Shown here piece by piece: positions 1 to 17,582 of a stretch of DNA of 64,000 nt. Made by a program: the position numbers and the translations under genes. Each line of letters starts with the position of its first letter. The stretch's first letter is position 1. The stretch comes from Candidatus Altiarchaeota archaeon. Lineage in GTDB: Archaea > Altiarchaeota > Altiarchaeia > IMC4 > QMZM01. Location of the stretch: NCBI GenBank assembly GCA_038891095.1, contig JAWAEV010000001.1, positions 100,468-164,467 on the forward strand, given 5' to 3'. The notes below the pieces were generated by a model. The model was not told the origin of the DNA. It was given only the letters and a program-made list of their open reading frames with translations, and searched no databases.

Positions 1-37
1 CTGCTAAAAAAATTGGAAATTTTTCTATTATTTTCAT
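1..37 (-). CDS. 5' end of next gene of the leftward operon (partial, runs off window)
   Basis: ATG at 37-35 overlaps the TGA of the 298-aa ORF (ATGA coupling); reads MKIIEKFPIFLA with no stop to the window edge. Confidence 0.5.
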   Translation of the reverse strand, partial: MKIIEKFPIFLA

Positions 38-930
38 TCTGGTAGATAGTCTTTCAACACAGTTATTGTTCCTATAGTTATAAGTGCTAAAGTTAAACTT
101 GCTGCTATTTCGGAGATAAATTTTAACTCATAGGGAATTTTTCCAAATGTTAAAAGTAAGGCGGATATTGCAATAAGAGATATTGCCCCAACAATTTGTA
201 TAAATAAGAGTGAAAATGTAAATTCCATAAATCTCCTACCAAGAAATCTTGTTGGAATGAAAAGATATAGAAAAAGGGTTATTGGAAAAATAGCTGAGAA
301 AATTGATAATAGCAAATAACGAATAGCAAAGATAAGCAACGGTAAAAGAAGAGAGAGCATAATAAGGAATATAAAAGGAATTGAAGCAATTGATGATAGC
401 TCATTTAGTAATGAAAATTTTTCAATTAGATAATTTGCTGATGAAGTGAACATTACTAATGGATCTGCTGATGATAACATGAAAATTTCTTTTGTTAAAC
501 TTTCAGACAGTGAAAATAAAACGAATAGGATATATGATGAAAAGGGTAGAGCTATTATTGCAAAAATTAAATTTGGGATTAATGCTTTCGCAGTTGCTCT
601 CTCCCACGGAGTTCCAGAAAGAAAGATAAGATAAAACGCTGAAACTAACAATGCTAAAACACAAATTGGCTCAAGTACGTTGATCATACTTTTTACAACA
701 ACCTGGATACTTGGATGGGAGACATCTGGGTTTCGCTCTATCAGGCTCCTTAAGTTGTGCTCAAACAAAATTTTCAATGTTTTTATTGTTTCGATAAAAA
801 ATTTTTCAACAATTCCCTTTTTAATCCCCCTCTCAAGAATAAATTTTTCATAAAGAGAGCCCTCCTCCGTGATTGCAAAACAATAATTGCTAAGGAATAA
901 GATAACACAAAATGGAGCTATTCTTTTCAT
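34..930 (-). CDS. Polytopic membrane protein, VirB6/TrbL/CedA-like, with a pilin-like helical hairpin
   Basis: Signal peptide; hairpin ALLVSAFYLIFLSGTPWERATAKALIPNLIFAII; several later TM helices with the VirB6-like pattern IRYLLLSIFSAIFPITLFLYLFIPTRFLGRRFME. Confidence 0.6.
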   Translation of the reverse strand: MKRIAPFCVILFLSNYCFAITEEGSLYEKFILERGIKKGIVEKFFIETIKTLKILFEHNLRSLIERNPDVSHPSIQVVVKSMINVLEPICVLALLVSAFYLIFLSGTPWERATAKALIPNLIFAIIALPFSSYILFVLFSLSESLTKEIFMLSSADPLVMFTSSANYLIEKFSLLNELSSIASIPFIFLIMLSLLLPLLIFAIRYLLLSIFSAIFPITLFLYLFIPTRFLGRRFMEFTFSLLFIQIVGAISLIAISALLLTFGKIPYELKFISEIAASLTLALITIGTITVLKDYLPE

Positions 931-2510
931 CTTGAGATATACTTCTTTATTTTAGTTGCCGAAAAAATTAAGAGTATTGTGAATATGAAGAGTATTATGT
1001 AGTTTGAGTAATCCTTCTTGCAATCTATATCCTCATTATTTTCACAGTCAGGGTCACATTTGCCATCAGGTTGGGCATCACAATAATTATCTCTTGATCC
1101 TGAAGGACAATCTTTTGGGCAATTTAAAAAATTTTCAAATTCAATTTCACAGATAGCATTGTTATTACATAAACAATCTCTATCTAACTTTCTTTCACAG
1201 TCAGGGTCACATTTGCTATCAGATTGAGCATCACAATAATTATCTCTTTCTCCTGAGGGACAATCTTCAGGGCAATTTAAAAAATTTTCACCTTGCTCAA
1301 AGTTGCAGATATAATCAAAGTTGCAGATATCAACTATTGTAATATTCACTGAATCCGATGCTGAATTTTCAGTTGCATCAAAAACAGTTAAAGATAAAAT
1401 GTGCTTTCCTACAGGTAATTCCCTTATGTTATCAATTTTTCTTCCATCTAAATACCAATTTAGTATATACGGTTCCTTACCACCGAGAATTTTATATTCT
1501 ATTGGAATTTCTACTCCATAGCTATAAATTCTGTCTTTTAGCGGAGTAATTAAAACTCGCAGCTGAGAGTCCATCACTTCTATTTCAACTTTTTCTTCTA
1601 AAGTTTGTAAATTTGCATCAGTGACCTTAAGAGAAATTTCATGCTTTCCAACAGATAAACTTTTTGTTGAGAAATTTTTTTCATTACTAAGAAAACCATC
1701 TATGCTCGAAAACCATTCGTAGTTATAAGGCTCTTTTCCTAAGGCTGCAAACGCCCTGAAATTTATTTTCTCTCCCTTTATGTAAGTTTTAGAAACTGGT
1801 AAGAGTAAATCGATGAAAAATTTTTCTACACCATAAGATGGCTCTTCAAAGCGTTCTATCTTTTTTATTTGAATTGAAATTACATCTTTTGAAAATTCAT
1901 TGCTCTCGGGTTTATAAACTATGAAAGTTATTTCATGCCTCCCAAGAGACAGATTTTTTGCTATAAAATCCTTCTCCTTAGAGAGGGGGCCATCAATTGA
2001 TGATGTCCACTGATATTCATATTCGCTATCCTTGTGAATTCCCTCATTTCCAATCCCGGAAAAAATTATATCTTGTCCTTGATAAAAAGAGGAATTCTCC
2101 ATAGGTGATAGAATTTTTGCAGAAAGTTTGCCATATGTGAACAAAACGACTTGATTGCAGAAATAAACTTTCCCTGTATGTAAACCATGACAAATTTTTT
2201 TAAACTCTTGACTCTTGCATAAAACCCATGCTGATTCATTTATATCTAATGAAATCTGTGGGGAATTATCGCATTTTATCTCATTTCCATCAACAAAAAA
2301 TTTTACTTCGCCTTTACATCTCTCAAGGTAATTCACTATCGTAACTCCAAGTTCTGTGCAAGGTTCACCAAAATAAATCTCCTGATTTACTACTTGTGGG
2401 CTTTTACAACCTTCTGCACTACATTGAGCATTTACATTTGATGAATGAATCATTGCTAATGTTATTGCTATAGTGACTAAAAAAATTTTGGCAGCAAACC
2501 TTTCATTCAT
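927..2510 (-). CDS. Membrane-anchored partner protein 1: PKD/Ig-like repeats + Cys/Asp-rich stalk + C-terminal TM
   Basis: Signal peptide; repeats such as YQWTSSIDGPLS..LSLGRHEITF; two ENFLNCPxDCPSGxRDNYCD..CDPDC units; TM plus basic tail. Confidence 0.85.
   Translation of the reverse strand: MNERFAAKIFLVTIAITLAMIHSSNVNAQCSAEGCKSPQVVNQEIYFGEPCTELGVTIVNYLERCKGEVKFFVDGNEIKCDNSPQISLDINESAWVLCKSQEFKKICHGLHTGKVYFCNQVVLFTYGKLSAKILSPMENSSFYQGQDIIFSGIGNEGIHKDSEYEYQWTSSIDGPLSKEKDFIAKNLSLGRHEITFIVYKPESNEFSKDVISIQIKKIERFEEPSYGVEKFFIDLLLPVSKTYIKGEKINFRAFAALGKEPYNYEWFSSIDGFLSNEKNFSTKSLSVGKHEISLKVTDANLQTLEEKVEIEVMDSQLRVLITPLKDRIYSYGVEIPIEYKILGGKEPYILNWYLDGRKIDNIRELPVGKHILSLTVFDATENSASDSVNITIVDICNFDYICNFEQGENFLNCPEDCPSGERDNYCDAQSDSKCDPDCERKLDRDCLCNNNAICEIEFENFLNCPKDCPSGSRDNYCDAQPDGKCDPDCENNEDIDCKKDYSNYIILFIFTILLIFSATKIKKYISR
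1008..1278 (-). repeat. 271-bp inverted repeat, copy A (pairs with 11331-11601)
   Basis: Manual reverse-complement alignment shows 2 mismatches, both synonymous. Confidence 0.9.
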
Positions 2511-5500
2511 TTTCTTTTGTCTCCACTTCTTTTTTTATTTCTTCAAATTTAAGTCGTCCTCCTTTGAACCATCTATAGAATAAAGCCATTGCTATTAGAA
2601 CTATCAAAAGTAATAGAAATTCTGGTGACAAAAACCACCAAATTCTCTTGAATGAAATTACATCCAAGTAGTCAGAAGTCTCAGTCTCTGTGAATTTCTC
2701 ATCCCCTAAGAATATGAACTTAACTTTTGTGCTTTCTTCACCAAGTTTAAATAAAAATGTCGCTCTTCCTTCACCATCTGTTCTTATATCTTGAGAGATG
2801 CCATAACCTTCAACCTTTACTGTAATTTTTCTGTTAGGGATTCCACTATTTGTGAGGGGGTTTATAAGTCTTATATTAATTTTAACATCTGTCCCTGGAT
2901 TTAGGTTATATCTACCTGGCCCAACACTTTCAACTATAATTTTTGATGGCTCTCTTAGGGTTACATTAATGCTAAATTCTTTATTTTCTGGTGGAGTAAC
3001 CTCTTTTCTTGGTGGAAATAATTTATAAGTTTGTGTCAATGTGTCATTTCTAAAATGTATGAAAATTGTCAAGCTAGCTTCTTTAAAATCTTCATTGCTA
3101 ATAAATTCGGGAAATTGAATTGTTGTGAAGTTTAGAATATAAATGCCAGTACTTCCAGCTTCTTCTGTTCCAGGAAGGGTTGACATTCCCGCTGATGAAT
3201 AGAATGAAGACATAAATACTTTTTGTGCCTCAGATGCTGCACCTTCTATATGTATAGTATAATAGAAAACTCTTCCATTACCATATTTGAAAGTTACTGC
3301 CATTGGCTTGTCATACTGTCCAGAGGAGTAAGAACCTCTTGCTAAAACTTTAGTTTCTGGATTGTTAATGCTGTCAATCACCACTGTTCCCTGAAGGAGC
3401 TCCCATCCAGATATGCTTTCATAGGGTGTTTGGAAGAATTCTCTTAGATCTTGAGATAAGTCATAAGTCCCTCTGACTGAACCTTCCCAAATTTCCGCAG
3501 TTCCGCTTCCAGATTTTGATCCAGTAAAATATCCTGGAAAAATTCCTTGTAGGTGATCATAATCCCAATCAGTTCCAATATAAGTTCCGCAATTTTCAAC
3601 AAATTTCCTTATCTCTTCAGCAGATGCTCCTGTTGGTCCAGAAGGACAACCAAAAATTATAACATCTGCATCTGTAAGGCACTCCTTACTCCATTGCTTG
3701 AATGGAATCTTCATTTCATTGAAAATATGTGAAGGCTGATCATAACTGCCATCTTGAATGCAAATTTTCAATGGTAAAATTAGCCTTACTAATGCACTTC
3801 CTGATGAACCTGCAGTGTAGTAATCTACATTTTTGAAATCTTCATTTTTTGCAATTACTTTCTCAACAATTTCCTTTGCATTTCCTGCTGATGAAACAAC
3901 AACATATGGGCCTGCATTATATTTAACTCCTAAAAATTCAATTGGGCCTATAATTCTACCAACTTTAAATTTTGTGTTTATATTGCACGATGATGGTTCT
4001 TGTGAGCATTTAGAAAGAGCCCATACAAGCCCATGAACTTTTAAAGGCTCATTCTGCTTATCACAAGCATTTGCATCTGCGGGATCAGTTGGAATTATAA
4101 CATCATTTGAAGAAATTTGCCAATTTTCTGGTTTTATCTCATTGCAAGTTTTTGGCTTTGTGACATTTATCTTTGTTATTATATGCTCAACTTCTCCTGC
4201 TAAACTTCCGCCTGTTTGAGAAATTGTTTTTTCAGGAGGATATCTCTGATCTATTATCTTTAAATCACTCCTTTCTTTTGTGTAAAGGTCAACAAAGTCA
4301 TAATAGTAAAATTCCTCATCATGGTATGTTTTCAGTGAATATAATGGCCTCAAATAGCTTTGGTCTGTTTCTTTGCAAATACAATCTTTTCTTTTGTAAT
4401 AAACAGGTGGTTTTTCTGAGTAATCAACACATGTAACATCAGTTAAATCATAACTTGGGCAGAAGCAATTTGGAGGACAAATCTCTTTTCCTTGTGCTAA
4501 ATAAGGAAATTCAAAACCTACCGCTGTTGGTATTTGTGATTCATAACCATAAGCATCTTCCATTTTATAAGTCAAATGTGCAGGTAAATTTCCATATGCA
4601 GGATCAGGATTTATTGGTGTGTATGGAAGTGCAGGCATATAAATTCCATGGTGAATATCTTTCCTATAAAGCTCATGTTTTATTGGATACGCTAAAGAAG
4701 AATATTCAAGTTTTGAATTTTTTACATTAAGAATAAATTTACTTATAATATCTGGTGAGACATCTATTCTAAGAGTTCCCTTATGTGTGATAAATTTCTC
4801 ATCACCATAACTATCAACGCCACCTGTTATTGAAATATTTATATCACGGAGGATATTTTTATGTATAACTGGTGGGCCTTTACCAATGCAATTTAAACTT
4901 GACCTCCATGCCATACTACCTGAAATATCATTAACAAGAACTACTGCTGCAGGTAACTCACTTTTAACAATTGATGCTAACTCATTGTAAATGCATTCCC
5001 ATGGACAATCACAACTTACAGCATAGAATTTTCCATTTCCAAGATTTGCTAATTCCTCCATAAAAGAAAGAACAGCATCATCGCCAATTGCAACAGTGTG
5101 CACTGTTATACCTTCAGAGGCAGCTGCTCGAACTGCCTCTCTTGCAGCTTCTTGTGCAGTGGAGGGAGTTGGAACATTCGGAATTCCATCAGAGAAGAGG
5201 ATTATATGCTTTTTACCTTCAGCACCAGATAAAAGTTCGGTTCCTTTTTGTATACCGCAAGCTATACAAGTTGCAGCCATTGGCCTGTAAGAATTTATCT
5301 CGTTATATAGCTGCTCTTTATCAGTTGTTAATGGGAGCGAAGAGATAACTGAAGTGCTAAAGCTGACTAAACCAACTGGAACATCTGGTACAACTTTATC
5401 AACAAATCCCTTAGTTGCTTCCTTAAGAGCATCTATTTTTCTTTTATCAAGATCAATTGCTGTGCCTATGGCATCATTGACATATTCCTCTGTTTGTATT

Positions 5501-7518
5501 ACTATTGGTCCAGCATAGCAACAACCACAGCAACATCCCGGACAAGTAGGATCACATGCCCATGTATGGTCAATAAGAGATGTTTCAAAATGTTCTTTAA
5601 TACTTATTGGTAGATCATCAGCGCTCTCTTTTAAATCATACTTAAATGTTATATCCTGTGCTATGACAAATTGGGCTCTGTTGCTTGAAGGATAATAAAC
5701 CTGAGTTAAAGTGTAAACTCCTGATGCAGGGTCCTTTGTGAAGATAGCAGTAGTTATTCTGAAAGGTATATTACCAGTTGAGATAACAGTTAGAGCACCA
5801 TTACTTACTGTAACCTTTGTAGGGGAATTTTGAGTTATTCTCACTCCCGAAGTTCTTATTTCTATGTCAGGTATTATAATTTTTATTACATTTGTTACTC
5901 CAGAATTGAAATAAGCAGATAATCTACATGGGAAATATGGACATTGAGAGCAATAGCAATTACAGAAGGGTGCACACATTCTATCGCATTCCCACCAACA
6001 TGCTGGCTCTCTTCTAAAACCACCACCAGCATATAATACATTTTTTCCTGTTCTTCCCCATTGCATGTTATTTCTTTCATCATTTAAATAAGGAGTATTA
6101 GTGAAAATTTTCACCCATACTTCTCTGAACAATTTTGAATCAAAATTATGTGTGCAATAAGCCTCTGGAACTTTCAAAACACTTTTAATTGTTGATCTAT
6201 CAGGCATTTCTTGGACTTCCTGCATTTCATTCCATTCATGCTGCTTTTCTAAATATTCATCATCTGCAGTTTCAAAATTTCTTGATGTTTTTTCTTCCTT
6301 GTCTTTCACTCCAAAGGAATACCATGGGTAGTTTACTACAGAACTTGGAAGGGATGTTCTTTGCTTACACCATGCAGTATCTTTTAGAGGTGTTCTATAG
6401 CAGAAAAGGTAGTCACTATAGGGCCGCCCCCATAAATTAAGATATTTTTCATAAATACACTCTGTATAATCATAGACCTGTTCACAGCTAGGACAGCATC
6501 CCCAAGGAAACACATTACAAGGACATAATCCTGAAGAAACACAATCAAATGTACATTCCAAAGATTCAGGCTGCTTATGATAACATTCATCAAGCAATAA
6601 TTTGTTTACAGCATCGGAATAAGCTCTTGCATCAACTATAACATATTCCTTTTTTTCTTTTTCAAAAGATATGTCCTCTTCAGCAAGAAAATACATGTCC
6701 TTTTTGTTATTATCAACCTTTTCAATTAACCAGTACCAAAGTATTTTATCATTATAGATGAAATCTATTGGATTATAAAGCTGAGCATCAACAACTCCAA
6801 AAATGCTTTCAGTTTCGCTTTTTTTTGCATAGCATAAAACAAAGGGCTTTTCAATTCCTTGAAATATATTTTCTGGAAAATTTAATTTGCTATAAATTTC
6901 AGCACTTGAATGTGGATAAGTAACAACCCTGTACTCAGAGAAACTTCCTTTAATTTTTTCACAGTTACTTAAATTTATTTCAATGTCCTTACAATATGGG
7001 CAACATTCTAAAGGATAGCCATCAAAGCCATCAACTTCCTTATGAAGTTTTTTTGTTTTTATTTTTGTTGCAATTACAACATCTTGTGAAGAATCATAAA
7101 GTTTTATCTCCTCACATTCAGAAACTGTTCTTATTGTGAGATTTATGCAAACCTTTTCAGAATTTTTTCCAGAGGCGTCAGTTGCAAATGCGCAAAACGT
7201 ATATTCACCAGCAGATGAAAATTTTTTTATAAAGCATGGTGGTTCTTTACAGCAAGTTAATGATGTGCAAGTTCTTGAGCTATAGCAACTGCATTCTTCA
7301 ATATTACCGGAGTTATCTTCAAGGAAAATTTTCTCTAAGCCAATATCATCAGTTGCTTCAATAATAAAGATAACTTCGCTATTAACAAAAGCAGGATTTG
7401 GCTGAGCTGTGAATGAAACAATTTTTGGAGGCTCATCTGCTGACACATTAGCTAAATTTCCAATTGATGTGAGAAGTGAAATTAAAAGTATATAAAGGAC
7501 TTTTTCTTGCTTATTCAT
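2503..7518 (-). CDS. Giant surface protein: Ig-like, Cys-rich, permuted vWA, GATase-like fold, Ig-like, C-terminal TM
   Basis: Signal peptide; vWA elements VGLVSFS, IILFSDG, VHTVAIG and VVLVNDISGSM; ADVIIFGC..IRKFVENCG..YGNGRVFY; TM FLLLLIVLIAMALFY. Confidence 0.85.
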   Translation of the reverse strand: MNKQEKVLYILLISLLTSIGNLANVSADEPPKIVSFTAQPNPAFVNSEVIFIIEATDDIGLEKIFLEDNSGNIEECSCYSSRTCTSLTCCKEPPCFIKKFSSAGEYTFCAFATDASGKNSEKVCINLTIRTVSECEEIKLYDSSQDVVIATKIKTKKLHKEVDGFDGYPLECCPYCKDIEINLSNCEKIKGSFSEYRVVTYPHSSAEIYSKLNFPENIFQGIEKPFVLCYAKKSETESIFGVVDAQLYNPIDFIYNDKILWYWLIEKVDNNKKDMYFLAEEDISFEKEKKEYVIVDARAYSDAVNKLLLDECYHKQPESLECTFDCVSSGLCPCNVFPWGCCPSCEQVYDYTECIYEKYLNLWGRPYSDYLFCYRTPLKDTAWCKQRTSLPSSVVNYPWYSFGVKDKEEKTSRNFETADDEYLEKQHEWNEMQEVQEMPDRSTIKSVLKVPEAYCTHNFDSKLFREVWVKIFTNTPYLNDERNNMQWGRTGKNVLYAGGGFRREPACWWECDRMCAPFCNCYCSQCPYFPCRLSAYFNSGVTNVIKIIIPDIEIRTSGVRITQNSPTKVTVSNGALTVISTGNIPFRITTAIFTKDPASGVYTLTQVYYPSSNRAQFVIAQDITFKYDLKESADDLPISIKEHFETSLIDHTWACDPTCPGCCCGCCYAGPIVIQTEEYVNDAIGTAIDLDKRKIDALKEATKGFVDKVVPDVPVGLVSFSTSVISSLPLTTDKEQLYNEINSYRPMAATCIACGIQKGTELLSGAEGKKHIILFSDGIPNVPTPSTAQEAAREAVRAAASEGITVHTVAIGDDAVLSFMEELANLGNGKFYAVSCDCPWECIYNELASIVKSELPAAVVLVNDISGSMAWRSSLNCIGKGPPVIHKNILRDINISITGGVDSYGDEKFITHKGTLRIDVSPDIISKFILNVKNSKLEYSSLAYPIKHELYRKDIHHGIYMPALPYTPINPDPAYGNLPAHLTYKMEDAYGYESQIPTAVGFEFPYLAQGKEICPPNCFCPSYDLTDVTCVDYSEKPPVYYKRKDCICKETDQSYLRPLYSLKTYHDEEFYYYDFVDLYTKERSDLKIIDQRYPPEKTISQTGGSLAGEVEHIITKINVTKPKTCNEIKPENWQISSNDVIIPTDPADANACDKQNEPLKVHGLVWALSKCSQEPSSCNINTKFKVGRIIGPIEFLGVKYNAGPYVVVSSAGNAKEIVEKVIAKNEDFKNVDYYTAGSSGSALVRLILPLKICIQDGSYDQPSHIFNEMKIPFKQWSKECLTDADVIIFGCPSGPTGASAEEIRKFVENCGTYIGTDWDYDHLQGIFPGYFTGSKSGSGTAEIWEGSVRGTYDLSQDLREFFQTPYESISGWELLQGTVVIDSINNPETKVLARGSYSSGQYDKPMAVTFKYGNGRVFYYTIHIEGAASEAQKVFMSSFYSSAGMSTLPGTEEAGSTGIYILNFTTIQFPEFISNEDFKEASLTIFIHFRNDTLTQTYKLFPPRKEVTPPENKEFSINVTLREPSKIIVESVGPGRYNLNPGTDVKINIRLINPLTNSGIPNRKITVKVEGYGISQDIRTDGEGRATFLFKLGEESTKVKFIFLGDEKFTETETSDYLDVISFKRIWWFLSPEFLLLLIVLIAMALFYRWFKGGRLKFEEIKKEVETKENE

Positions 7519-7595
7519 TTTTTGTTATCTGCTATAATTATTTATTCAATCATAAAGTATTTAAACTTTACTTGAAATAATTAATTTAATGCAAA

Positions 7596-7880: not shown

Positions 7881-7888
7881 TACTTAAA

Positions 7889-10453
7889 ATGAATTTTTCA
7901 AGAAAAAAATTTTCATTTTTTTTGCTCTTAATTTTTATGATATCCTCAGCTGTGATTTCAGAGGCAAAATCGCCTATTGCAGATGCACGCTGCGGTTTCT
8001 CAAGTGAAGATGTAACACAAAAGTATGTCTATGCCATTGTTGGAGAAAGAATTTATTTTGATGGCTCAAAATCTTTTGATTTAGATAAGAATGGCTATAT
8101 AACAGGTTATTATTGGGATTTTGATGATGGCTTCACAGCTATTGGCCAAAAAGTTGAGCATAAATTTTCCTCTCCTGGGAAGTATATAGTAAGATTAATT
8201 GTTGTTGACAATGAAAATACTCCTAGTGTTATTCCAAGTGAAATCTCAGTTTATATCTCAGAAAAAATTTCAGCAAAAATTTTAAAGCCAAGAGACAACT
8301 CAGAATTCATAAGAGATACAGAAACTATAGAATTTCTTGGAAATGCTTCTGGTGGCACACCATGTTATGAAAAACCAAATTATAAATATTTATGGAAGTC
8401 AAATGTTGTTGGTGTTATTGGAAATGAAAAAGAATTCTCTTTAAGGGCAAATTCTCTTCCATTAGGATGGCATACAATAACTTTAGAAATTGAAGATTGT
8501 CTTGGAAATAAAGCAAATGATACAATAGCCATTGCAATTGTTGAATCATTAAAAGCAGAAATCCTCGAAACATGCAAAGGTGCATCTGAAACCACGGAGA
8601 AAATTTTTGGTAGAGTTGTATTTGATAGCTCATGGGTTAGATTTATTCCTTATGGAGAGATTTCAAAAGGGATTTTCTCGTGCAATAATTCAATTTATGT
8701 AAAAAATATAGCAAAATGGCTTGATCACAATGGAAAAATTTTAATTTACATTTCATCTGATGAAGATGAATTCTCTGCAAAAGCTGAAACATTAAAAAAT
8801 TTTCTCTCAAATGAAGGCTATGATGTTGACTTAGCTAAAAGACCTCAAAAGATATCATATGAATTACTATCGCAATACGGGCAGGTTTGGTTTATTGATA
8901 CTGAGAGACATACAACTTTAGATGATGATGAAATTAATGCAATTTTGAAATATCATAATAATAAAGGAAATTTACTTCTATCAGGAGAGGTAGACAGCGA
9001 AGGGACTTTCTCGGATATAGTAAATAAAATTTCAGAAAATTTTAAGGTCAGCATGAAAGAGAAGTTTTTAATCCCTGAGAATATTGTTGATGAAGAAAAT
9101 TGCATTTCTGCTTCATTTTTAGAGCATGAATTAACAAAAGACGTTGAAAAATTGTCAACATCAAAAGATGACCTTCTCATTAGAACAAAAAATCTAAATG
9201 TTAAAGAGATAGCAATTGTTAATGCTAAGGGATATATTTTCGCTTTGGATTATGAAGTAAAGAGCACTGAAGCAAAAAGCTATATATGCGATTGTGAAGT
9301 AAAATTTACTGGAAAAGCTTCTGGTGGAATGCCACCATATGAAGTAAAGTGGATTTCCCTTGAAGATGGTGTTATTGATAGATTTTGGATTAATAGCAGT
9401 GGTGGCACTTACACTTTGCTTTCAACACCTCCATTACTAAAACCACTCACTGAAGGCACACACGCAATTAAATTTGAAGTTGTTGATTCCTTAGGAATGA
9501 GAGCTTCTGATATAAGATATGAAGTGAATATAAAATGGTGCTGTGCTTTAGGAACTAATTGCAAAACATATTGGCCAAAACATGAAGGGCCTCTTGTCAC
9601 TACAGGAAATGAAATAGCAAACGCTTGTGATGTCTATGAGGTATGCCATCCTGATTTGTGGCAATTGGCTAAAGAAGCAATTGAATGCTGTAAATGGAAA
9701 TGCTCAGGCAGATGCCATGAGAAATGCAATTATGTTTATTCAGAAGGAGAAAGATTAGGCACTACACCAGAAGGCTTAAACTTAGATGGTCTAAAAAAAT
9801 GTGCAGGTCTTTACATTATATATGGTTTTGGTAAGCCAGAATCTGCAGTTTATATGAGTGATTATTTTTGGCCTGAAATTTGTTGTTTAGGACATCCTCT
9901 TTGCTTAGTTGGCTGTTGTAGTGCAGATTTAGGCAGATGTAGATGTTGTTATCATAGCTATACAAAGAATGTTGAAGCACTTCCTTGCAGAGGAGCTGTT
10001 GCCAATGCTGCACCTATTGGCTGGGCATCTGATGCAGCAATGAATAAAAATTCCTGTACTTTCTCTGATTTATCAGCACATATGAGCATTCTTGGAGATC
10101 AAGGTGTTGTAACTTCAGCATCTGGTATTAACACAGGAACATGTTGTGATTATGCAAATTCTCTTGCAACAATGCTAAGAATAGTTGGCTATAAACCAGA
10201 TGAAGTTTATGCAAACACTGGCCCGGGACATTGCTATAATTTAGTTAAATTTCCACAAGATGATAAATTTCATATTATTGACACTACAGGAAATTGCTAT
10301 TTGCCATTATGTGGAGCAGGTGGTCTTATAGAAGGTGAACCTTACGTGCCAAGAGACAAAACAACATGTGGACCTACATATCCTTACTGCTCATATTTCG
10401 ACTGTAGAAATGATATGGGTATGGCACCTTGTCCAGAAGCATATGGATGTTGA
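7889..10453 (+). CDS. Secreted PKD + GATase-like + transglutaminase-like (Cys-His-Asp) protein
   Basis: PKD (FDGSKSFD..YYWDFDDG..HKFSSPGKY); GTCCDYANSLATMLR..GHCYNLV..HIIDTT matches the transglutaminase-like core. Confidence 0.8.
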   Translation: MNFSRKKFSFFLLLIFMISSAVISEAKSPIADARCGFSSEDVTQKYVYAIVGERIYFDGSKSFDLDKNGYITGYYWDFDDGFTAIGQKVEHKFSSPGKYIVRLIVVDNENTPSVIPSEISVYISEKISAKILKPRDNSEFIRDTETIEFLGNASGGTPCYEKPNYKYLWKSNVVGVIGNEKEFSLRANSLPLGWHTITLEIEDCLGNKANDTIAIAIVESLKAEILETCKGASETTEKIFGRVVFDSSWVRFIPYGEISKGIFSCNNSIYVKNIAKWLDHNGKILIYISSDEDEFSAKAETLKNFLSNEGYDVDLAKRPQKISYELLSQYGQVWFIDTERHTTLDDDEINAILKYHNNKGNLLLSGEVDSEGTFSDIVNKISENFKVSMKEKFLIPENIVDEENCISASFLEHELTKDVEKLSTSKDDLLIRTKNLNVKEIAIVNAKGYIFALDYEVKSTEAKSYICDCEVKFTGKASGGMPPYEVKWISLEDGVIDRFWINSSGGTYTLLSTPPLLKPLTEGTHAIKFEVVDSLGMRASDIRYEVNIKWCCALGTNCKTYWPKHEGPLVTTGNEIANACDVYEVCHPDLWQLAKEAIECCKWKCSGRCHEKCNYVYSEGERLGTTPEGLNLDGLKKCAGLYIIYGFGKPESAVYMSDYFWPEICCLGHPLCLVGCCSADLGRCRCCYHSYTKNVEALPCRGAVANAAPIGWASDAAMNKNSCTFSDLSAHMSILGDQGVVTSASGINTGTCCDYANSLATMLRIVGYKPDEVYANTGPGHCYNLVKFPQDDKFHIIDTTGNCYLPLCGAGGLIEGEPYVPRDKTTCGPTYPYCSYFDCRNDMGMAPCPEAYGC

Positions 10454-10455
10454 AA

Positions 10456-11685
10456 ATGGAAATGAAAAATAAAATTTTAAAAATTTATATTTGGATTGGA
10501 ATTTTGATTTTATTTATAAATTTTGTTAATGCATTTGATGGACATGAATTGATATTAGAGATAAAGAAAAGTGCACCTAAGGAAATTTCAGCTGAAGAAA
10601 TTTTGCAGGTGAAAATTGAAGTGATCAATTTTTATAATGATTCAGTGGCTGTAAAGTTAATAGAGAATGTAGATTTTGCTGAACCAATAGATAAAGAAAA
10701 TTTAGTTAAAAGACAGAATATAACTGAAACTAAGGATGAGGTTATCATTAATGAAATACGCTGGTTTAAACCTGATGGAATTTGCAATGTTGGTTGTAAA
10801 AGCAATGATAAAATTTGTGATCCTGATTGTAAATGTACTGCCATGCAAGATTCTGATTGCGCTGCCTTTATAGTTTCAATTCCGCCAAGATATGAATGGT
10901 CATTTACTTTGAAGCCTAATGAAAAAAAAGAAGTTTCATATAGAGTTAAACCATATAAAATTGGTTATATAAAAATTCCAAAAACAGTTGCTGAAACAAA
11001 CATTAAAGGAACTATAACAAGATTTTATTCAAATGAATTAATTGTTAGAGTAAAATGCAAAATTGATGGCATCTGCAGCAAAGATGAAAACTTTGGAAAT
11101 TGTCCTGAAGATTGTCCCTCAGGAGAAAGAGATAATTATTGTGATGAAATAAAAGATAGCATATGTGATCCTGATTGCCCAAGATATGCTGACCCTGATT
11201 GCATAACAGCTATATGTGGTGATGGTAAATGTGAGAAAGATAAAGAGGAAAACTATGAAAATTGTCCTGAAGATTGTAAAAAGCCAATAGTATGTGGCGA
11301 TAGAATTTGTGAATTAGCTGAGAATTTTGCAAATTGCCCTGAAGATTGTCCCTCAGGAGAAAGAGATAATTATTGTGATGCTCAATCTGATAGCAAATGT
11401 GACCCTGACTGTGAAAGAAAGTTAGATAGAGATTGTTTATGCAATAACAATGCTATCTGTGAAATTGAATTTGAAAATTTTTTAAATTGCCCAAAAGATT
11501 GTCCTTCAGGATCAAGAGATAATTATTGTGATGCCCAACCTGATGGCAAATGTGACCCTGACTGTGAAAATAATGAGGATATAGATTGCAAAAAGGATTA
11601 CAGCATAATTCTTATATTAATTTTTGTTGTCTTTATGATTTTAGCTTATTTATATTACAAAAAAAGAAAAGGTGAAATGCAATGA
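10456..11685 (+). CDS. Membrane-anchored partner protein 2: DUF11-like Ig domain + Cys/Asp stalk + TM
   Basis: Likely start MEMKNK just after the upstream stop (ORF track gives 10429); IKKSAP..VKIEV..LKPNEKKEVSYRV; several CPEDC/CDPDC units; TM + KKRK. Confidence 0.85.
   Translation: MEMKNKILKIYIWIGILILFINFVNAFDGHELILEIKKSAPKEISAEEILQVKIEVINFYNDSVAVKLIENVDFAEPIDKENLVKRQNITETKDEVIINEIRWFKPDGICNVGCKSNDKICDPDCKCTAMQDSDCAAFIVSIPPRYEWSFTLKPNEKKEVSYRVKPYKIGYIKIPKTVAETNIKGTITRFYSNELIVRVKCKIDGICSKDENFGNCPEDCPSGERDNYCDEIKDSICDPDCPRYADPDCITAICGDGKCEKDKEENYENCPEDCKKPIVCGDRICELAENFANCPEDCPSGERDNYCDAQSDSKCDPDCERKLDRDCLCNNNAICEIEFENFLNCPKDCPSGSRDNYCDAQPDGKCDPDCENNEDIDCKKDYSIILILIFVVFMILAYLYYKKRKGEMQ
11331..11601 (+). 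repeat. 271-bp inverted repeat, copy B
   Basis: Encodes NCPEDCPSGERDNYCD...DIDCKKDY, identical in protein to the 927..2510 copy. Confidence 0.9.
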
Positions 11686-13553
11686 TATCAAAAAGGAAAT
11701 TTTTCATTATTTCAATTTTATTTACATTACTTTTTACATTAAATGCCAATGCTCAATCAAGGGCAGAACTTGGAAATTTAGTTTTAAAGTTAATATGCCT
11801 TCTTTTCTATATAATTCCTGCAGTAATGGCTTTACTAATTTCTATTGGAGCAGTTTTTATTATCACTGGGGATGAAACAAAAAGAAATAAAGGAAAGAAA
11901 TTAATTTTGAATTCATTCATTGCATCTTTTATTTTAATTTTTTTAGCTTGGCTCGTGACATTAACCTCGCCGCAACTAAAATTTTCAGATTATGCTCTTT
12001 GCTTTAGTGAGAATGGAACTTTACAGTATCCAACAACAAGTACAATTTCTGGGATGTTAGCACCTTGGGCAGATGCAAGAGTTGGAATTACAACATCACC
12101 ACCACCAGAAGAAAAAGAAGTCTACACAGGGAAAAATGCTCCTGTATATTTTGATGGCTCAAATTCAAAGGATTTTGATGGGAGCATAGTTGATTATGAA
12201 TGGAATTTTGGAGATAGCTCAGCAATTGAGAAAGGGGTAAAAGTTTCGCATTCATATTCGGCTGACGGAACTTACACCGCAGAATTAAAAGTTACTGATA
12301 ACAGTGGTTTATCAGATACTGATATTGTTAAAATTTACATTCTACCTTTAGAGGCGCATATCTTAAAACCAAAAAATGGCCAAATTTTTATCTATCCTAA
12401 TGATGAAATAAAATTTGAAGGTGAAGCTAAATATGGAGCTCCATGTATGGCTCCAAATGAACCATATAAGTATAATTGGCAATCAAATTTGAAAGGTTTT
12501 CTCAGTAATGAAAAATCCTTTGTTTTAAAAGCAAGTGATTTAGGTTTAGGGATGCACTCCATAAGTTTAACAGTAACTGATTGTGCTGGAAATACAGCAG
12601 AGGATAGTATAACAATTATAATAAATATGCCGCTTTTTGTAGAAATTTTAAATCCAAAAAATGATAATGAAAAATTTGATTGCGATGAAAAATTTAAGGG
12701 CAATGTTTCAGGAGGCACTCCACCATATAAAGTCACATGGAAAGCAAACGGAAAAATTTTCAGTACAGGCACAATAAATGTTGATGGTGGTACTCATGAA
12801 ACTGAAAAAAGACCATCACCACCAGGAAAATATGACATAACTTTTGAAGCTGTTGATAAATATGGCTCAAAAGCTGATGATATGAAAAAAGAGATAGAGG
12901 TCATTCCTTGTAGTCCTTGTGATGTATACAAAGCGACAGGAGTTCTACCAAATAAATTTGACTGGAGGAATTATAATGGGAAAGATTATAATAGTCCGGT
13001 TAAAAATCAAGGTCGTTGCGGAAGCTGCTGGGCACACTCTGTAATCGGTGCAATGGAAGGAACATATAATGTTGAGCAAGATAACCCTGATTTAGATCCA
13101 AATCTCGCAGAACAATGCTTAGTGGGCTGTTGTAAATGTGCCTATGGGTGTGCAGGATGTCCCTTTGCTGGTTGGCCAAGTTGTCCATTGAATTACTTAA
13201 AGAGTCCTGGAACATCTACCGAGAGCCAATGTGCATACACAGCAAGTAATTCACCATGTTGTAGTAGCTGCAGTTCTAACACTTGGAAGATAAAAAATTG
13301 GGGCAGTGTTCCAAGTGATAGCAAAAAAATAAAAGAAGCATTGATATGCAATGGTCCACTCGCAGTTGCATCTTTTGCTTGGAGACATGCAATTGTGCTT
13401 TCTGGTTATGATGACACTCAAGGAGTTTGGATAATAAAGAATAGTTGGGGCACAGGTTGGGGTCAAGGTGGTTATGGTAGGATTCCGTATAATGGAGCTT
13501 ATGGTGATATAGTAGCGCATGCTGCATATGTTGATGGAGTAACTCCGCCTTAA
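11682..13553 (+). CDS. TrbC/VirB2 pilin-like hairpin fused to PKD domains and a papain-family (C1A) cysteine peptidase
   Basis: IIPAVMALLISIGAVFIITGDETKRNKGKKLILNSFIA; PNKFDWR..VKNQGRCGSCWA (Gln, Cys), HAIVLSGY (His), WIIKNSWG (Asn). Confidence 0.9.
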   Translation: MISKRKFFIISILFTLLFTLNANAQSRAELGNLVLKLICLLFYIIPAVMALLISIGAVFIITGDETKRNKGKKLILNSFIASFILIFLAWLVTLTSPQLKFSDYALCFSENGTLQYPTTSTISGMLAPWADARVGITTSPPPEEKEVYTGKNAPVYFDGSNSKDFDGSIVDYEWNFGDSSAIEKGVKVSHSYSADGTYTAELKVTDNSGLSDTDIVKIYILPLEAHILKPKNGQIFIYPNDEIKFEGEAKYGAPCMAPNEPYKYNWQSNLKGFLSNEKSFVLKASDLGLGMHSISLTVTDCAGNTAEDSITIIINMPLFVEILNPKNDNEKFDCDEKFKGNVSGGTPPYKVTWKANGKIFSTGTINVDGGTHETEKRPSPPGKYDITFEAVDKYGSKADDMKKEIEVIPCSPCDVYKATGVLPNKFDWRNYNGKDYNSPVKNQGRCGSCWAHSVIGAMEGTYNVEQDNPDLDPNLAEQCLVGCCKCAYGCAGCPFAGWPSCPLNYLKSPGTSTESQCAYTASNSPCCSSCSSNTWKIKNWGSVPSDSKKIKEALICNGPLAVASFAWRHAIVLSGYDDTQGVWIIKNSWGTGWGQGGYGRIPYNGAYGDIVAHAAYVDGVTPP

Positions 13554-13581
13554 AAAAATAAAGATAGGGGGTGAATTAAAA

Positions 13582-14547
13582 ATGTATGAGGTAATAAAAA
13601 AAATTTTTGTTTTTATCTTGATTTTAATTTTAAGCAATCTTGCAACATCGATGTTAAATCCTGCAGCAGTTTATTGCAATTCCTTAGGTTATGAGTATGT
13701 TATAGAACAAACCCCTGAAGGGGAAATTGGTTTTTGTAAATTTAAAGATGGGTCAAAATGCTCAGATTGGGAATTTTTATCAGGAAAATGCGGCCAGAAA
13801 TATAGCTACTGCTCAAAAGAAGGTTATAAGATTAAGACCACTACAGATTTTGAAAAGTGCGCTCATCTTTTTTCTGAAGAATGTGCAGTTTGTGTTTTAA
13901 AAAATGGTACTGAAATAGAGGTTACAAAATTGATGAATTTAAATTTTGATGAAGGTGTATGCGGAGATAACATATGCGTCTTAGGTGAAAATTTTCTTAG
14001 CTGTCCACAAGATTGTCCTTCTGGCTCTTATGATGGCTATTGTGATGGCCTAAAAGATGGCAAATGTGACCCTGACTGCGAAATTGGAAAAGATCCGGAT
14101 TGTAAAATTTCAACAACTATGACAACAATTGCAGTAATATGTGGAAATGGAAAATGTGAGCAAAATGAAAACTTTGGAAATTGTCCTGAAGATTGCCCCT
14201 CAGGAGAAAGAGATAATTATTGTGATGCTCAATCTGATAGCAAATGTGACCCTGACTGTAGAGCAGAGTTAGATCCAGATTGCATAACTGTGAGATGTGG
14301 TGATAAAATTTGTAATTTTGAACAAGGTGAAAATTTTTTAAACTGCAGAGAAGATTGTAGCTCAGGCTCAAAGGATAATTACTGTGATAAAATTGTTGAT
14401 AAAATTTGTGACCCTGACTGTACAAACTTAGAGGACCCTGATTGCAAGAGAACAGAGCCATTACCAATATATCTAATTCTAGTAATTCTGATAATTTCAC
14501 TACTCATAATATTTTTGATTAAAAAAATAAAATCAGGAAACTACTAA
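13582..14547 (+). CDS. Membrane-anchored partner protein 3: DUF333-like domain + Cys/Asp stalk + TM
   Basis: NPAAVYCNSLGY..GFCKFKDGSKCSDWEFLSGKC; three CGD/NxxC..ENF.xC.xDC units; C-terminal TM. Confidence 0.85.
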   Translation: MYEVIKKIFVFILILILSNLATSMLNPAAVYCNSLGYEYVIEQTPEGEIGFCKFKDGSKCSDWEFLSGKCGQKYSYCSKEGYKIKTTTDFEKCAHLFSEECAVCVLKNGTEIEVTKLMNLNFDEGVCGDNICVLGENFLSCPQDCPSGSYDGYCDGLKDGKCDPDCEIGKDPDCKISTTMTTIAVICGNGKCEQNENFGNCPEDCPSGERDNYCDAQSDSKCDPDCRAELDPDCITVRCGDKICNFEQGENFLNCREDCSSGSKDNYCDKIVDKICDPDCTNLEDPDCKRTEPLPIYLILVILIISLLIIFLIKKIKSGNY

Positions 14548-14574
14548 TTCAAGCTTTAAATTTATTAATCCAAA

Positions 14575-16182
14575 ATGAGAAAATGGATTGTGCACTTCAA
14601 GAAATTTCTATTTTTTACTTTTATCTCACTAATATTTCTTTATTTTGCAATTTTTACAAACGCTATAATAGATTGTAAATTTTATGGATGCGCAGAAAAT
14701 GAAAGGTGCATGGCTGATGGATTTTGCACTCCCCTCTCAGTTAAGGAATACTGCGAAAGTAAAGGTTTTCCATATAATGATGTAATTCTTACAGTAAATT
14801 GTAGCAAAGAACTTCCAAAAGAAAGAGAATTTCTATGTAAACAATGTAAAGGCGATTATGAATATTTAAAAAGAGTTAATAGCATAATTGATATAATTTT
14901 CAATGTTGCTGCTGGTATTGCAGTACTTTTACTTGTTGTGAATGGCTTTAGGTTTTTAGCATCAGAGGATACTTTTGCAAGAGAAAATTCAAAGAAGGCA
15001 ATTTTATATGTTCTTCTTGGTTTAGTGATATTAATTTTATCAAGAGCAATTATAAGCTCTTTACTATTACCGCCACTCTCTTTACCAAGAGAAACTACAA
15101 CTACTACTACTCAACAAGTAACTACAACATTGCCTCCGGTCTCAATGTGTATTGGCCTTCTTACATGCACGGATTGCTTAGCAAATAATTGCAAATGGTG
15201 TCATAATCCACAACTTGCCCCATCAATATGCATAGAAAATTGTAATGATTGCGATGCAATTCTTGGAACTTGTCTTCAATACACATGTGAAGTAACAACT
15301 ACAACATCGACAACAATAACTTTCATGACTACTATAACAGGAGCGACAACTACAACAACATCAACAACAATAAATGTACCTTGCGATTCTTTAGCACCGC
15401 CTAACTGTAATGGTATTTGTCCTTCAGGAGAAACATGCATAGCAGAGGGTAGCACTTGTAAATGTACTGTATTCACAACCACCACAACAACTACCACAAC
15501 CACTACAACTACAACAATAAGAGCAAAATTAACCGTTATGTTTGTGCCAGTAAATTGGATAGGATCACTTTCAACATTTGATTCTGCTGTGCAAACACAA
15601 GCAAATGAAATTCTAAAGAATATCCCATTAAAGGATTGTCCAAGTTCATTTGTTGTAAAGAAAGCAACATCAAATTGTAATATTGGATATATGAGCTGTA
15701 TGTGCCATGAATTAAGTAGAATATCTTCATGTGCTCAGGCAACTGGCGAAACATATGATTATGTTGTTGGTTTGCATAATGGTGATGTCTGTGGAAATGT
15801 CTTAGGGTTTTCTTGTTATGTTGGCACAGTCTTTTCTGAGACAAGTGTTACCTTAGTTGCAGTTCATGAACTTGGGCATGAATGGGGCTTAAATGATGAA
15901 TATTGTAGCCAACTTTGTCCAGGATGTCCTGCTGGGCCACCAAATGCATTAAGCAAGACAGAATTTTGTGACCCACAACCGGGAGGAGATTGCTGTGGTG
16001 CCTGTATTGGTTATAATCCACATTGCTATGGCAATGTTCAAAAAGATTGCATAGATAGTTCAGGAAACAAAATTTGTAATGGCAGAGCAATAATGAGTTA
16101 TGGCTCTGCTCCTGGTCCAAGAGGTCAAGATAGACCATCATGGAATCACTTGCTTACAATACCAAAGCTGAGATGTGGTTGA
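14575..16182 (+). CDS. Cys-rich domain + VirB2 pilin-like hairpin + Thr-rich linker + Zn metallopeptidase
   Basis: VAAGIAVLLLVVNGFRFLASEDTFARENSKKAILYVLLG; HELGHEWGLNDEY and Met-turn-like AIMSY. Confidence 0.85.
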   Translation: MRKWIVHFKKFLFFTFISLIFLYFAIFTNAIIDCKFYGCAENERCMADGFCTPLSVKEYCESKGFPYNDVILTVNCSKELPKEREFLCKQCKGDYEYLKRVNSIIDIIFNVAAGIAVLLLVVNGFRFLASEDTFARENSKKAILYVLLGLVILILSRAIISSLLLPPLSLPRETTTTTTQQVTTTLPPVSMCIGLLTCTDCLANNCKWCHNPQLAPSICIENCNDCDAILGTCLQYTCEVTTTTSTTITFMTTITGATTTTTSTTINVPCDSLAPPNCNGICPSGETCIAEGSTCKCTVFTTTTTTTTTTTTTTIRAKLTVMFVPVNWIGSLSTFDSAVQTQANEILKNIPLKDCPSSFVVKKATSNCNIGYMSCMCHELSRISSCAQATGETYDYVVGLHNGDVCGNVLGFSCYVGTVFSETSVTLVAVHELGHEWGLNDEYCSQLCPGCPAGPPNALSKTEFCDPQPGGDCCGACIGYNPHCYGNVQKDCIDSSGNKICNGRAIMSYGSAPGPRGQDRPSWNHLLTIPKLRCG

Positions 16183-16252
16183 AAGGTGAGAAAAGAGGGA
16201 GTAAAAATATATAAAGATTGGAAATAAAATCTAAATAGAAATTAAAAATAAA

Positions 16253-17116
16253 ATGAAAATTTCAATTTTAGCAGGTTTTTTTATTTCAATTTTTTTGATT
16301 TCTTTAGTTTATGGTGAAAAAGTTCTAAACATTGACCTTGAAGTTTTTAAAGACGATTCTGTAAAAGTAAATAAAATAATTCTAATGGAAGGAAATCCAA
16401 CTGTTTACATTTCTCCTGGAGAGTATAAACTAAGGATACTTGACTATGAAAACAATGTAATAGAGGAAATTCCAATAAATCTTGTTTTTATGGTAATGAC
16501 AGATCCTCCAAAGCCAACAGATTCTGCATTCATAAATTTAAGATTGCCTTATAAGCAGGAAATGCAAACTCTGAAATTATTTAATAAGGATATGGAAATT
16601 TTTTCTACAAAAATTCAACTCTGCAATAATGATAATGTATGTGATATAAATTATGAAAATTTTCTTAGTTGTCCTGAAGATTGTCCATTAGATAAAAAAG
16701 ATGGAATTTGCATAAAAGAAGCTGATAAAATTTGCGACCCTGATTGTGCAGAAGGTGTTGATCCTGATTGCAAAGCAGTGCCAACAACAATTGAGATTAC
16801 TCGCATAGAAACTACTAAAATAACTACTGTTATGACAACTACAACAACAATTCAAGATAAAAAGACGGACTTTTTTATCTATCTCCCTCTATTTATTATT
16901 ATTGTATTAATTTTATCTTTTGTTGTGATTATATACATGAGGAGAAAAATTAAAAAGAAGGAGAAAGGATTTGATAATAGCAAAGTAGTATCATGGGTAA
17001 GAGAAAAATTATCCAAAGGAGAAAATCCAGAAATTTTAAAGAAAGGTTTAGAAGCAGAAGGATATAGCCCTGAAATAGTAGATAAAATTCTTAGCGAAGA
17101 TGAAAATTTTAAATAA
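16253..17116 (+). CDS. Membrane-anchored partner protein 4: beta-rich domain + one Cys/Asp unit + TM + cytoplasmic helical domain
   Basis: Signal peptide; ENFLSCPEDCPLDKKDGIC..CDPDC; Thr-rich linker; TM; tail WVREKLSKGENPEILKKGLEAEGYS. Confidence 0.8.
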   Translation: MKISILAGFFISIFLISLVYGEKVLNIDLEVFKDDSVKVNKIILMEGNPTVYISPGEYKLRILDYENNVIEEIPINLVFMVMTDPPKPTDSAFINLRLPYKQEMQTLKLFNKDMEIFSTKIQLCNNDNVCDINYENFLSCPEDCPLDKKDGICIKEADKICDPDCAEGVDPDCKAVPTTIEITRIETTKITTVMTTTTTIQDKKTDFFIYLPLFIIIVLILSFVVIIYMRRKIKKKEKGFDNSKVVSWVREKLSKGENPEILKKGLEAEGYSPEIVDKILSEDENFK

Positions 17117-17579: not shown

Positions 17580-17582
17580 AAA

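Follow-up and report, generated by a model that had tools for sequence, protein, structure and literature searches.

What does a membrane protein contribute when its gene stands directly behind that of a larger exported enzyme or adhesin? The question is raised by a 64,000-nucleotide stretch of a Candidatus Altiarchaeota genome (assembly GCA_038891095.1, contig JAWAEV010000001.1, positions 100,468 to 164,467), the whole of which is called the window here. In it, the genes of four large exported cargo proteins (a giant with a von Willebrand factor A [vWA] domain, a transglutaminase-like protein, a papain-family peptidase, and a zinc metallopeptidase) are each followed by the gene of a partner, P1 to P4, in which a variable head is joined to a constant cysteine-rich stalk and a membrane anchor. 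Our findings suggest that the partners are probably cognate docking or regulatory subunits: one a prodomain-like inhibitor, two detached anchors, and one an Ig-repeat protein that accompanies the vWA adhesin. This interpretation is carried by the agreement of head class with cargo class across related genomes, by natural fusions of the two, and by a predicted contact between the papain domain and the DUF333 head of its partner.

The host genome comprises 958,546 bp in 15 contigs at 31% G+C and is archaeal by its genes for ribosomal protein S19e, a Cbf5 that carries a DKCLD domain, and a KaiC-type ATPase. Positions ~1 to 18,400 of the window hold two divergent, operon-like gene runs whose products are exported and Cys-rich. 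On the minus strand the vWA gene is followed by those for P1 and a polytopic membrane protein; on the plus strand the order is transglutaminase-fold protein, P2, papain, P3, metallopeptidase, P4, and two pilin-domain proteins, with intergenic gaps of -25 to 70 nt. The ATG of P2 at 10456 sits 2 nt past the stop codon of the transglutaminase-like cargo gene. An earlier, sequence-only reading of this DNA had described four cargo genes, each directly followed by a stalk-bearing partner; all four pairs were found, and the open reading frames lie where that reading placed them.

2503..7518, minus strand: giant vWA surface protein of 1671 residues, with a signal-like N terminus and its own C-terminal transmembrane segment.
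927..2510, minus strand: P1, 527 residues; signal peptide, head of Ig/PKD-like repeats (~398 residues), two stalk units, transmembrane segment.
34..930, minus strand: polytopic membrane protein of 298 residues, directly 3' of P1.
7889..10453, plus strand: secreted protein of 854 residues; signal peptide, PKD/Ig repeats, Cys-rich C-terminal transglutaminase-fold domain (residues ~541-854), no transmembrane segment.
10456..11685 (alternative start 10429), plus strand: P2; signal peptide, DUF11/BatD-like beta-sandwich head, three and one half stalk units, transmembrane segment.
11682..13553, plus strand: papain-family (C1) peptidase of 623 residues; VirB2-like transmembrane hairpin, PKD/Ig repeats, C1 domain (residues 422-623).
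13582..14547, plus strand: P3, 321 residues; signal peptide, tandem DUF333 head (residues 25-127), three stalk units, transmembrane segment.
14575..16182, plus strand: M64-like zinc metallopeptidase of 535 residues; Cys-rich N-domain, VirB2-like transmembrane hairpin, Thr-rich linker, HELGHEWGLNDEY catalytic domain.
16253..17116, plus strand: P4, 287 residues; signal peptide, beta-rich head of ~105 residues, one stalk unit, Thr-rich linker, transmembrane segment, cytoplasmic tail of ~50 residues.
17100..18374, plus strand: two VirB2-like pilin-domain proteins (159 and 263 residues) at the end of the plus-strand cluster, with T4SS_pilin matches at 1.7e-12 and 2.2e-9.
1008-1293 and 11316-11601: arms of an inverted repeat of 286 nt with 98% identity, located by a repeat finder and spanning the final two stalk units in both P1 and P2.

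By hydropathy, P1 to P4 all have a hydrophobic, signal-like N-terminal segment and a single C-terminal transmembrane segment. The stalk consists of a 48-residue unit, xCx(6-8)ENFxNCPxDCPSGxxDNYCDxxxDxxCDPDCxxxxDxDC, present in two copies in P1, three and one half in P2, three in P3, and one in P4. Among nine units, 18 columns are invariant, 6 of them cysteines, and most copies carry an extra cysteine near the N terminus. The strict motif occurs in five open reading frames of the whole genome, four of them in the window; the fifth, on contig C2, follows a gene for a 1128-residue Cys/Thr-rich exported protein with a dockerin match. All five stalk genes are preceded by a same-strand gene for a Cys-rich protein of at least 500 residues with a signal-like start, a kind of neighbor found for just 12 of the 948 heuristic genes (hypergeometric, 1.3e-10, with criteria set post hoc). 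No Pfam or NCBIfam family covered the stalk repeat in the window proteins or in 51 stalk proteins of relatives, and NCBIfam held no family for any of P1 to P4.

A stalk profile searched against a library of 1.84 billion proteins retrieved 1225 representatives at E<=1e-3, 291 of them at <=1e-10. The best 150 of these 1225 have a median length of 295 residues and a C-terminal transmembrane segment in 137 cases, and 113 could be assigned to a head class (P4-type, 42; P2-type, 33; DUF333, 13; P1-type, 13; others, 12). The stalk-anchor is a disulfide-rich, previously undescribed module that bears a small, recurring set of heads. The 286-nt repeat shared by P1 and P2 probably reflects recent gene conversion or recombination between stalks, and the stalk units of different genes seem to homogenize. 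The sequence-only reading had seen a constant stalk and transmembrane segment beneath changing, unrelated heads. Constancy of the anchor holds for P1 to P4, and their heads do differ; the claim of unrelatedness needs the qualification that the P1 head is made of Ig/PKD-like repeats like those of the cargo proteins.

Two minor features of the stalk proteins were also observed. A cytoplasmic tail of ~45 residues (…PEILKKGLEAEGY…) behind the transmembrane segment is common to P4 (16253..17116) and the contig C2 stalk protein (L001, 3920-5140); the genome's other stalk proteins are without the PEILKKGLEAEGY tail, and it matched no Pfam family. A 154-residue Cys-rich transmembrane protein at 18997..19461 on the minus strand has the same head as this C2 protein and no stalk repeat, which looks like shuffling of a head module with and without a stalk.

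The pairing of heads with cargo was examined in 41 related genomes, the window's own (G000) included, of which 24 match the stalk profile. A stalk-centered set was assembled from 40 loci around stalk matches in 7 genomes, together with the window and its own contig C2, giving 55 stalk genes; head classes were defined among these and then set against the upstream catalytic domain. In all 54 stalk genes that have an upstream gene it lies on the same strand, with a gap of <=70 nt in 51. DUF333 heads follow C1 peptidases in 7/7 cases, P4-type heads follow metallopeptidases in 6/6, P2-type heads follow transglutaminase-like proteins in 12/14, and P1-type (H2) heads follow vWA giants in 9/10. The two exceptional P2-type heads stand behind pilin-PKD proteins, and Transglut_core matches one of these proteins weakly. 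At locus L043, from another family of the order, the succession of papain, DUF333-stalk, metallopeptidase (fused), and transglutaminase-like protein is kept.

Because these loci had been picked by their stalks, the search was repeated from the enzyme side in the 41 genomes. A DUF333 gene lies directly downstream of 22 of 38 C1 open reading frames and is fused to the peptidase in 6 more. The 20 transglutaminase-like open reading frames comprise 17 with a P2-type head gene downstream, 1 fusion, and 2 with no head match, one of which still has a stalk open reading frame behind it. For the 10 strong metallopeptidase matches the corresponding numbers are 6 P4-type head genes downstream, 2 fusions, and 2 with neither. 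Over the related genomes and beyond them, head class follows cargo class, as the sequence-only reading had proposed from the window. Judged from this observed linkage, the four enzyme- or adhesin-partner pairs are cognate, and their pairing is conserved rather than a product of local chance.

For the papain pair, a mode of action can be proposed. The peptidase at 11682..13553 matches Pfam Peptidase_C1 at 8.2e-31 (108.2 bits; cutoff, 20.7), and the catalytic-site residues Q22, C28, H148, and N166 are invariant in 7/7 aligned C1 domains. A Pfam scan at E<=0.01 gave no Inhibitor_I29 match, and the Ig/PKD repeats lead straight into LPNKFDWR at the start of the enzyme domain. The head of P3 belongs to DUF333 (PF03891; 4.8e-21, 75.2 bits; cutoff, 25), as do 7/7 heads of the H3 class above the same cutoff. 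Its AlphaFold2 model (pLDDT, 88.8; pTM, 0.80) consists of two helix/beta-hairpin units. Neither P3 nor a DUF333 profile found a relative in the PDB by sequence (the profile at E<=0.1), and a Foldseek search of the model against the PDB gave a best E of 0.15, nothing at E<=0.001, and no chagasin, cystatin, or staphostatin among its rows, a missing match that is still compatible with any of these folds for DUF333.

In the six fused C1 homologues, a signal peptide is followed by tandem DUF333, 25 to 55 residues, and the C1 domain; DUF333, lying between signal peptide and protease, therefore occupies the position of a propeptide. Some genomes hold several diverged C1 paralogues that differ in architecture, and each of these keeps a DUF333 gene (four in G019 and three in G004, for example). 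A cross-phylum scan, in which a DUF333-head alignment was searched against one genome per species, returned 33 loci, of which 19 encode fused signal peptide-DUF333-C1 proteins, 13 a C1 gene followed by a DUF333-stalk-transmembrane gene, and 1 no C1 domain. By record title, the archaeal loci belong to Altiarchaeota, Woesearchaeota, Nanoarchaeota, Aenigmatarchaeota, Micrarchaeota, Hermodarchaeota, and Methanosarcinales, and the bacterial loci to Anaerolineae, Dehalococcoidales, Zixibacteria, Omnitrophota, Moraniibacteria, Saccharibacteria, and Bacteroidales. Three loci titled as Saccharibacteria or Moraniibacteria metagenome-assembled genomes (L056, L058, and L068) have C1 followed by DUF333-stalk-transmembrane, with heads 42 to 59% identical to that of the window; this split arrangement could be due to gene transfer or to mis-binning.

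Co-variation of the pairs across genomes, which the sequence-only reading had named as a check, was observed for DUF333 and C1: over 41 non-redundant pairs, their distances correlate with a Mantel r of 0.44, a value reached by 0 of 2000 permutations. Nearest neighbors agree for head and protease in 13/41 pairs, and the nearest head shares the arrangement (cis or trans) in 38/41. A complex of the C1 domain with the DUF333 head was predicted for one cognate pair, with a 7-row alignment for each chain and three controls. The cognate model reached ipSAE values of 0.81, 0.80, and 0.80 and all three controls 0.00; partner pLDDT was at least 89, and at least 86% of contacts were common to the runs. 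Among solved complexes, 116 of 157 pass the mark for this score; among mismatched pairs, 2 of 215 do. This calibration is rough here, since custom alignments were used.

The modeled interface joins the oxyanion residue Gln22, the catalytic Cys28, His148, and Asn166/Trp168 of the papain domain to the mature N terminus (residues 1-6) and the loops 20-26 and 37-40 of DUF333, in which P3, A5, T20, E24, G26, and W39 are invariant in 7/7 sequences. Since DUF333 has no PDB relative by sequence or by Foldseek, the model is no memory of a solved complex. In this model the partner touches the active-site cleft of the enzyme, as an inhibitor should, and we propose that the protein P3 is a trans-acting, membrane-tethered, prodomain-like blocker of the papain. 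Among the titles listed, a literature search, whose coverage ended short of subscription journals and supplements, turned up none on the function of DUF333 and no link between this domain and C1 peptidases. A protease-classification paper considered as a source on DUF333 was set aside, the domain it names being DUF3335.

Fusions of a different geometry characterize the metallopeptidase pair. The enzyme at 14575..16182 scores below the Pfam cutoff for Peptidase_M64 (2.1e-4, 21 bits; cutoff, 26), with its HExxH at residue 431, and HExxH is present in 7/7 proteins upstream of P4-type or H8 heads; the best PDB match of its profile was 3p1v at 6.6e-4. It shares the HExxH...DEY-type catalytic segment with the IgA peptidase M64 family (PDB 3p1v and 4df9) and differs from that family in its sub-cutoff Pfam score, its VirB2-like transmembrane hairpin, and its pairing with a beta-rich head that is encoded separately and carried on a stalk. 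The fused homologues at L043 (5464-8217) and L044 (2976-5873) run from enzyme to P4-type head, stalk unit, and C-terminal transmembrane segment, the last being called by hydropathy only in L044. An ESM Atlas look-up of the P4 head returned unnamed clusters only, with scores of <=0.78.

For the cargo of P2, the transglutaminase assignment is tentative. Its PKD repeats match PKD_4 at 2.4e-13; Pfam made no transglutaminase call at E<=0.01, and the sub-threshold Transglut_core match (E, 0.014; 15.4 bits; cutoff, 23) falls on a GTCCDY segment at ~10130-10195 of the window. The triad C212/H241/[DE]258 is kept in 12/12 orthologues, and the top fold rows for the model (pLDDT, 54.7) were TG2, TglA, FXIII, and LapG, at middling Z scores of 6.9 to 7.3. 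By sequence, the profile had no match in the PDB. BatD was matched weakly in orthologues of the P2 head (8.4e-5). The single fused homologue, G020:C18, places enzyme, head, and stalk in one chain.

For the fourth pair, the association is one of a trio. The vWA giant matches Pfam VWA at 4.3e-13 and has its transmembrane segment at residues 1626-1653. Among the relatives, 11 open reading frames are orthologous at E<=1e-60 (45 to 58% identity), and a stalk match lies further along the strand in 8 of them; G004:C82, G015:C100, and G004:C32 have none downstream. The P1 head has weak K319L-like_PKD and Big_7 matches, and of the 9 H2 loci in which any gene lies downstream of the P1-type one, 8 have a multispanning membrane protein of ~300 residues there. 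The protein at 34..930 on the minus strand and those of locus L002 (G000:C1:94000-100467) form a run of paralogous polytopic membrane proteins that extends past the window; several of the L002 paralogues have PF18895-like hairpins, and one member of the run has a vWA-like segment.

From these observations we infer that the region is a conserved cell-surface cluster of two-gene modules, in which a large exported enzyme or adhesin is followed by its cognate type I membrane protein. The variable head would dock on its own enzyme, while one to four disulfide-rich 48-residue units and the transmembrane segment would hold it above the membrane; the heads appear to be domains that in other lineages sit in the enzyme's own polypeptide. 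For the papain, tandem DUF333, which in many C1 peptidases of bacteria and archaea is the N-terminal domain at the propeptide position, is supplied in trans and tethered to the membrane, with its mature N terminus and two loops predicted to lie over the Cys/His/Asn cleft. It may inhibit the papain, which lacks an I29 propeptide, or be a folding-latency domain for it. For the metallopeptidase and the transglutaminase-like protein, the beta-sandwich head, stalk, and transmembrane segment correspond to the C-terminal anchor of fused homologues, and on this ground P2 and P4 may be detached docking and anchoring subunits; a regulatory effect on their enzymes is possible. The anchor role is most sensible for the transglutaminase-like protein, because it has no transmembrane segment of its own. 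The Ig-repeat stalk protein and the polytopic membrane protein would accompany the giant adhesin, perhaps co-assembling with it as a conserved trio.

The sequence-only reading had offered a choice between inhibitors with an immunity function and anchoring chaperones, and each proposal survives in part. Inhibition fits the papain pair, in which DUF333 is modeled on the active-site cleft and occupies the propeptide position in 6 + 19 fusions, and it fits without the sense of immunity. Anchoring fits the transglutaminase-like and metallopeptidase pairs, for which enzyme-head-stalk-transmembrane fusions exist.

Several observations weigh against the interpretation of the partners as docking or regulatory subunits. 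No DUF333 lies near 10 of the 38 C1 open reading frames (one of the 10 being a contig-end fragment) and no C1 near 20 of 48 DUF333 open reading frames, including the one at 36810..38003 of the window. The cross-phylum search pattern was built from the C1-linked DUF333 subfamily and favors linked copies, and the papain-DUF333 binding is a model confidence score for a single pair. The transglutaminase fold was assigned on a low-confidence model (pLDDT, 54.7) whose top VIA-align match, 3ly6, had a Z score of 7.3 and an rmsd of 4.0 over 172 aligned residues. Of the cargo proteins, three already carry a membrane anchor, the vWA giant a C-terminal transmembrane segment and the papain and metallopeptidase PF18895 hairpins, so anchoring is not the sole role in these pairs; with papain and inhibitor both fixed in the membrane, it is hard to see how the enzyme would become active. 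The compared genomes are kin, which makes the counts non-independent and the adjacency partly inherited synteny. Stalk genes of the H5 class, encoding a CarboxypepD_reg-like head followed by a transmembrane segment and cytoplasmic tail, stand behind a cytoplasmic amidohydrolase gene in 5/5 loci (L007, L012, L017, L022, and L037); not every stalk gene therefore partners extracellular cargo, and conserved adjacency alone can be plain synteny.

The alternative that survives best holds that the four partners serve solely as tethers or scaffolds for their enzymes, and that DUF333 either binds the papain with no inhibitory effect or acts only as a folding chaperone. It draws on the fused metallopeptidase and transglutaminase-like homologues, in which head, stalk, and transmembrane segment form a C-terminal anchor, on the lack of a transmembrane segment in the window's transglutaminase-like cargo, and on the C-terminal transmembrane segments of 137 of the best 150 stalk proteins worldwide. 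We consider it unlikely, since the modeled DUF333 interface lies over the catalytic Cys/His/Asn residues and not on a distal surface, and since the window papain already has a transmembrane hairpin. Moreover, cis-fused DUF333 is N-terminal, at the propeptide position, and comes without stalk or transmembrane segment, so it is no anchor there.

Improbable, in our judgment, is that the partners are substrates or acceptors, with the transglutaminase-like enzyme cross-linking the P2 head into a surface layer and the proteases processing the stalk proteins. A transglutaminase-like fold with a conserved Cys/His/Asp-or-Glu triad would suit such chemistry, and beta-sandwich heads adjoin this enzyme in all lineages; however, the fusion G020:C18 suits a docking domain equally well, and the papain pair is modeled with a tight, conserved interface of three segments, as is typical of inhibitors. 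It is about as improbable that there is no physical relation at all, paralogous stalk proteins alternating with enzymes by inherited gene order alone. The compared genomes are all of one order, and the amidohydrolase neighbors of the H5 genes (5/5) illustrate how synteny alone yields constant neighbors, but diverged C1 paralogues in single genomes each keep a DUF333 gene (four in G019, three in G004), domain fusions are known for 3/4 pairs, the DUF333-C1 linkage recurs in bacterial phyla, and the papain-DUF333 model passes its controls.

A polymorphic effector-immunity system, in which the enzymes are weapons against other cells while the producer and its relatives are shielded by the partners as immunity proteins, is suggested by small cognate genes directly 3' of C-terminal enzyme domains (gaps of -25 to 70 nt, as in toxin-immunity cassettes), by one partner predicted to block the active site of its enzyme, and by stalks that recombine (the 286-nt arms of P1 and P2, 98% identical), yet it is highly improbable, because heads (43 to 66% identity to the window copy) and papain domain (37 to 53%) are conserved across genera and not hypervariable in that comparison, 101 of the best 150 stalk proteins in the 1.84-billion-protein library fall into the four head classes of P1 to P4, cargo and partner are cis-fused in several lineages, Pfam and NCBIfam scans recognized no delivery or toxin-cassette domain, and the stalk-centered loci hold no arrays of orphan immunity genes. 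The window pairs resemble contact-dependent inhibition (CDI) and Rhs cassettes in that a large protein with a C-terminal enzyme domain precedes a small cognate gene, and they differ in their conservation across an order, their cis fusions, and their lack of hypervariability and of a delivery module. The analogy to polymorphic toxins drawn in the sequence-only reading was accordingly abandoned, the pairs being conserved across genera, families, and an order, and a tempting interpretation gives way to the better-supported one of docking and regulatory subunits.

Closer parallels are found among proteases and their dedicated inhibitors. The I29 propeptides of cathepsin L-like enzymes block the catalytic cleft. 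Like these papain zymogens, the DUF333-C1 fusions have a domain between signal peptide and C1 that is predicted to lie over the cleft; unlike I29, DUF333 is a tandem alpha/beta unit with disulfide bonds that has neither an I29 match nor a solved look-alike, and it is encoded here by a separate gene and tethered to the membrane by a stalk. In staphostatin-staphopain operons a protease gene precedes that of its specific inhibitor, and the staphostatins are cytoplasmic, lipocalin-like proteins that guard against premature activation. The papain and P3 genes repeat this order of a cysteine protease directly before a small cognate binding protein, whereas P3 is extracellular, disulfide-rich, and membrane-anchored. 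Membrane anchoring of such an inhibitor is described for Pseudomonas Cpi1, a chagasin-like inhibitor of papain-like proteases (bioRxiv 10.64898/2026.06.02.729523). Cpi1 is a chagasin-family lipoprotein directed against host plant proteases, whereas P3 presents DUF333 on a stalk and transmembrane segment and its presumed target is the producer's own neighboring protease. The arrangement thus resembles a protease with its prodomain or dedicated inhibitor, and split enzyme and anchor subunits, with no I29, chagasin, or cystatin membership by the tests run.

These results give DUF333, a widespread domain of unknown function, a testable role as a blocker or prodomain of C1 peptidases, supported by two gene arrangements, fused and split, across archaeal and bacterial phyla. 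They also define a disulfide-rich stalk-anchor module, and it is this module and the DUF333-papain link that are most worth following. More broadly, the pairs indicate how archaea with small genomes may organize and restrain surface hydrolases, candidate tools for interaction with other cells.

The pilin-like hairpins invite a further step. T4SS_pilin (PF18895) matches the hairpin of the papain at 2.8e-6 (27.8 bits; cutoff, 26.6) and that of the metallopeptidase at 1.4e-7 (31.9 bits), and the genome contains 18 matches to this family, fused to enzymes or stand-alone; as speculation, VirB2-like hairpins hint at display on a fiber. With DUF333 carried on a stalk in the producer's own membrane and the proteases fused to pilin hairpins, the proteases might be silent beside that membrane and active only when displayed away from it, on a pilus-like fiber or in contact with another cell. 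DUF333 would then be an unrecognized prodomain and inhibitor family for papain-like proteases, its fold differing from that of every solved inhibitor, split off here onto a membrane stalk as a form of spatial self-protection, an extended scheme that we regard as tentative and on balance doubtful. A type IV secretion system beside the cluster was considered and rejected, the only VirB4-like (AAA_10) open reading frame lying away from the window on contig C2, near another pilin gene.

Elsewhere in the window, the minus-strand gene at 36810..38003 encodes a second DUF333 protein, of 397 residues (DUF333, 1.2e-21), which combines this domain with a Kunitz/BPTI domain (1.8e-7) and further Cys-rich modules and has no C1 neighbor; it may be a multi-headed protease inhibitor. 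A Kunitz domain is unusual in an archaeon. The gene upstream of it, 38000..39262, encodes a 420-residue membrane protein with no family match. Nearer to the paired genes, 19455..27096 on the minus strand holds two more giant exported proteins (762 and 1782 residues), with weak SdrD_B/SpaA and FlgD_ig/CHU_C-like matches, which extend the surface-protein island.

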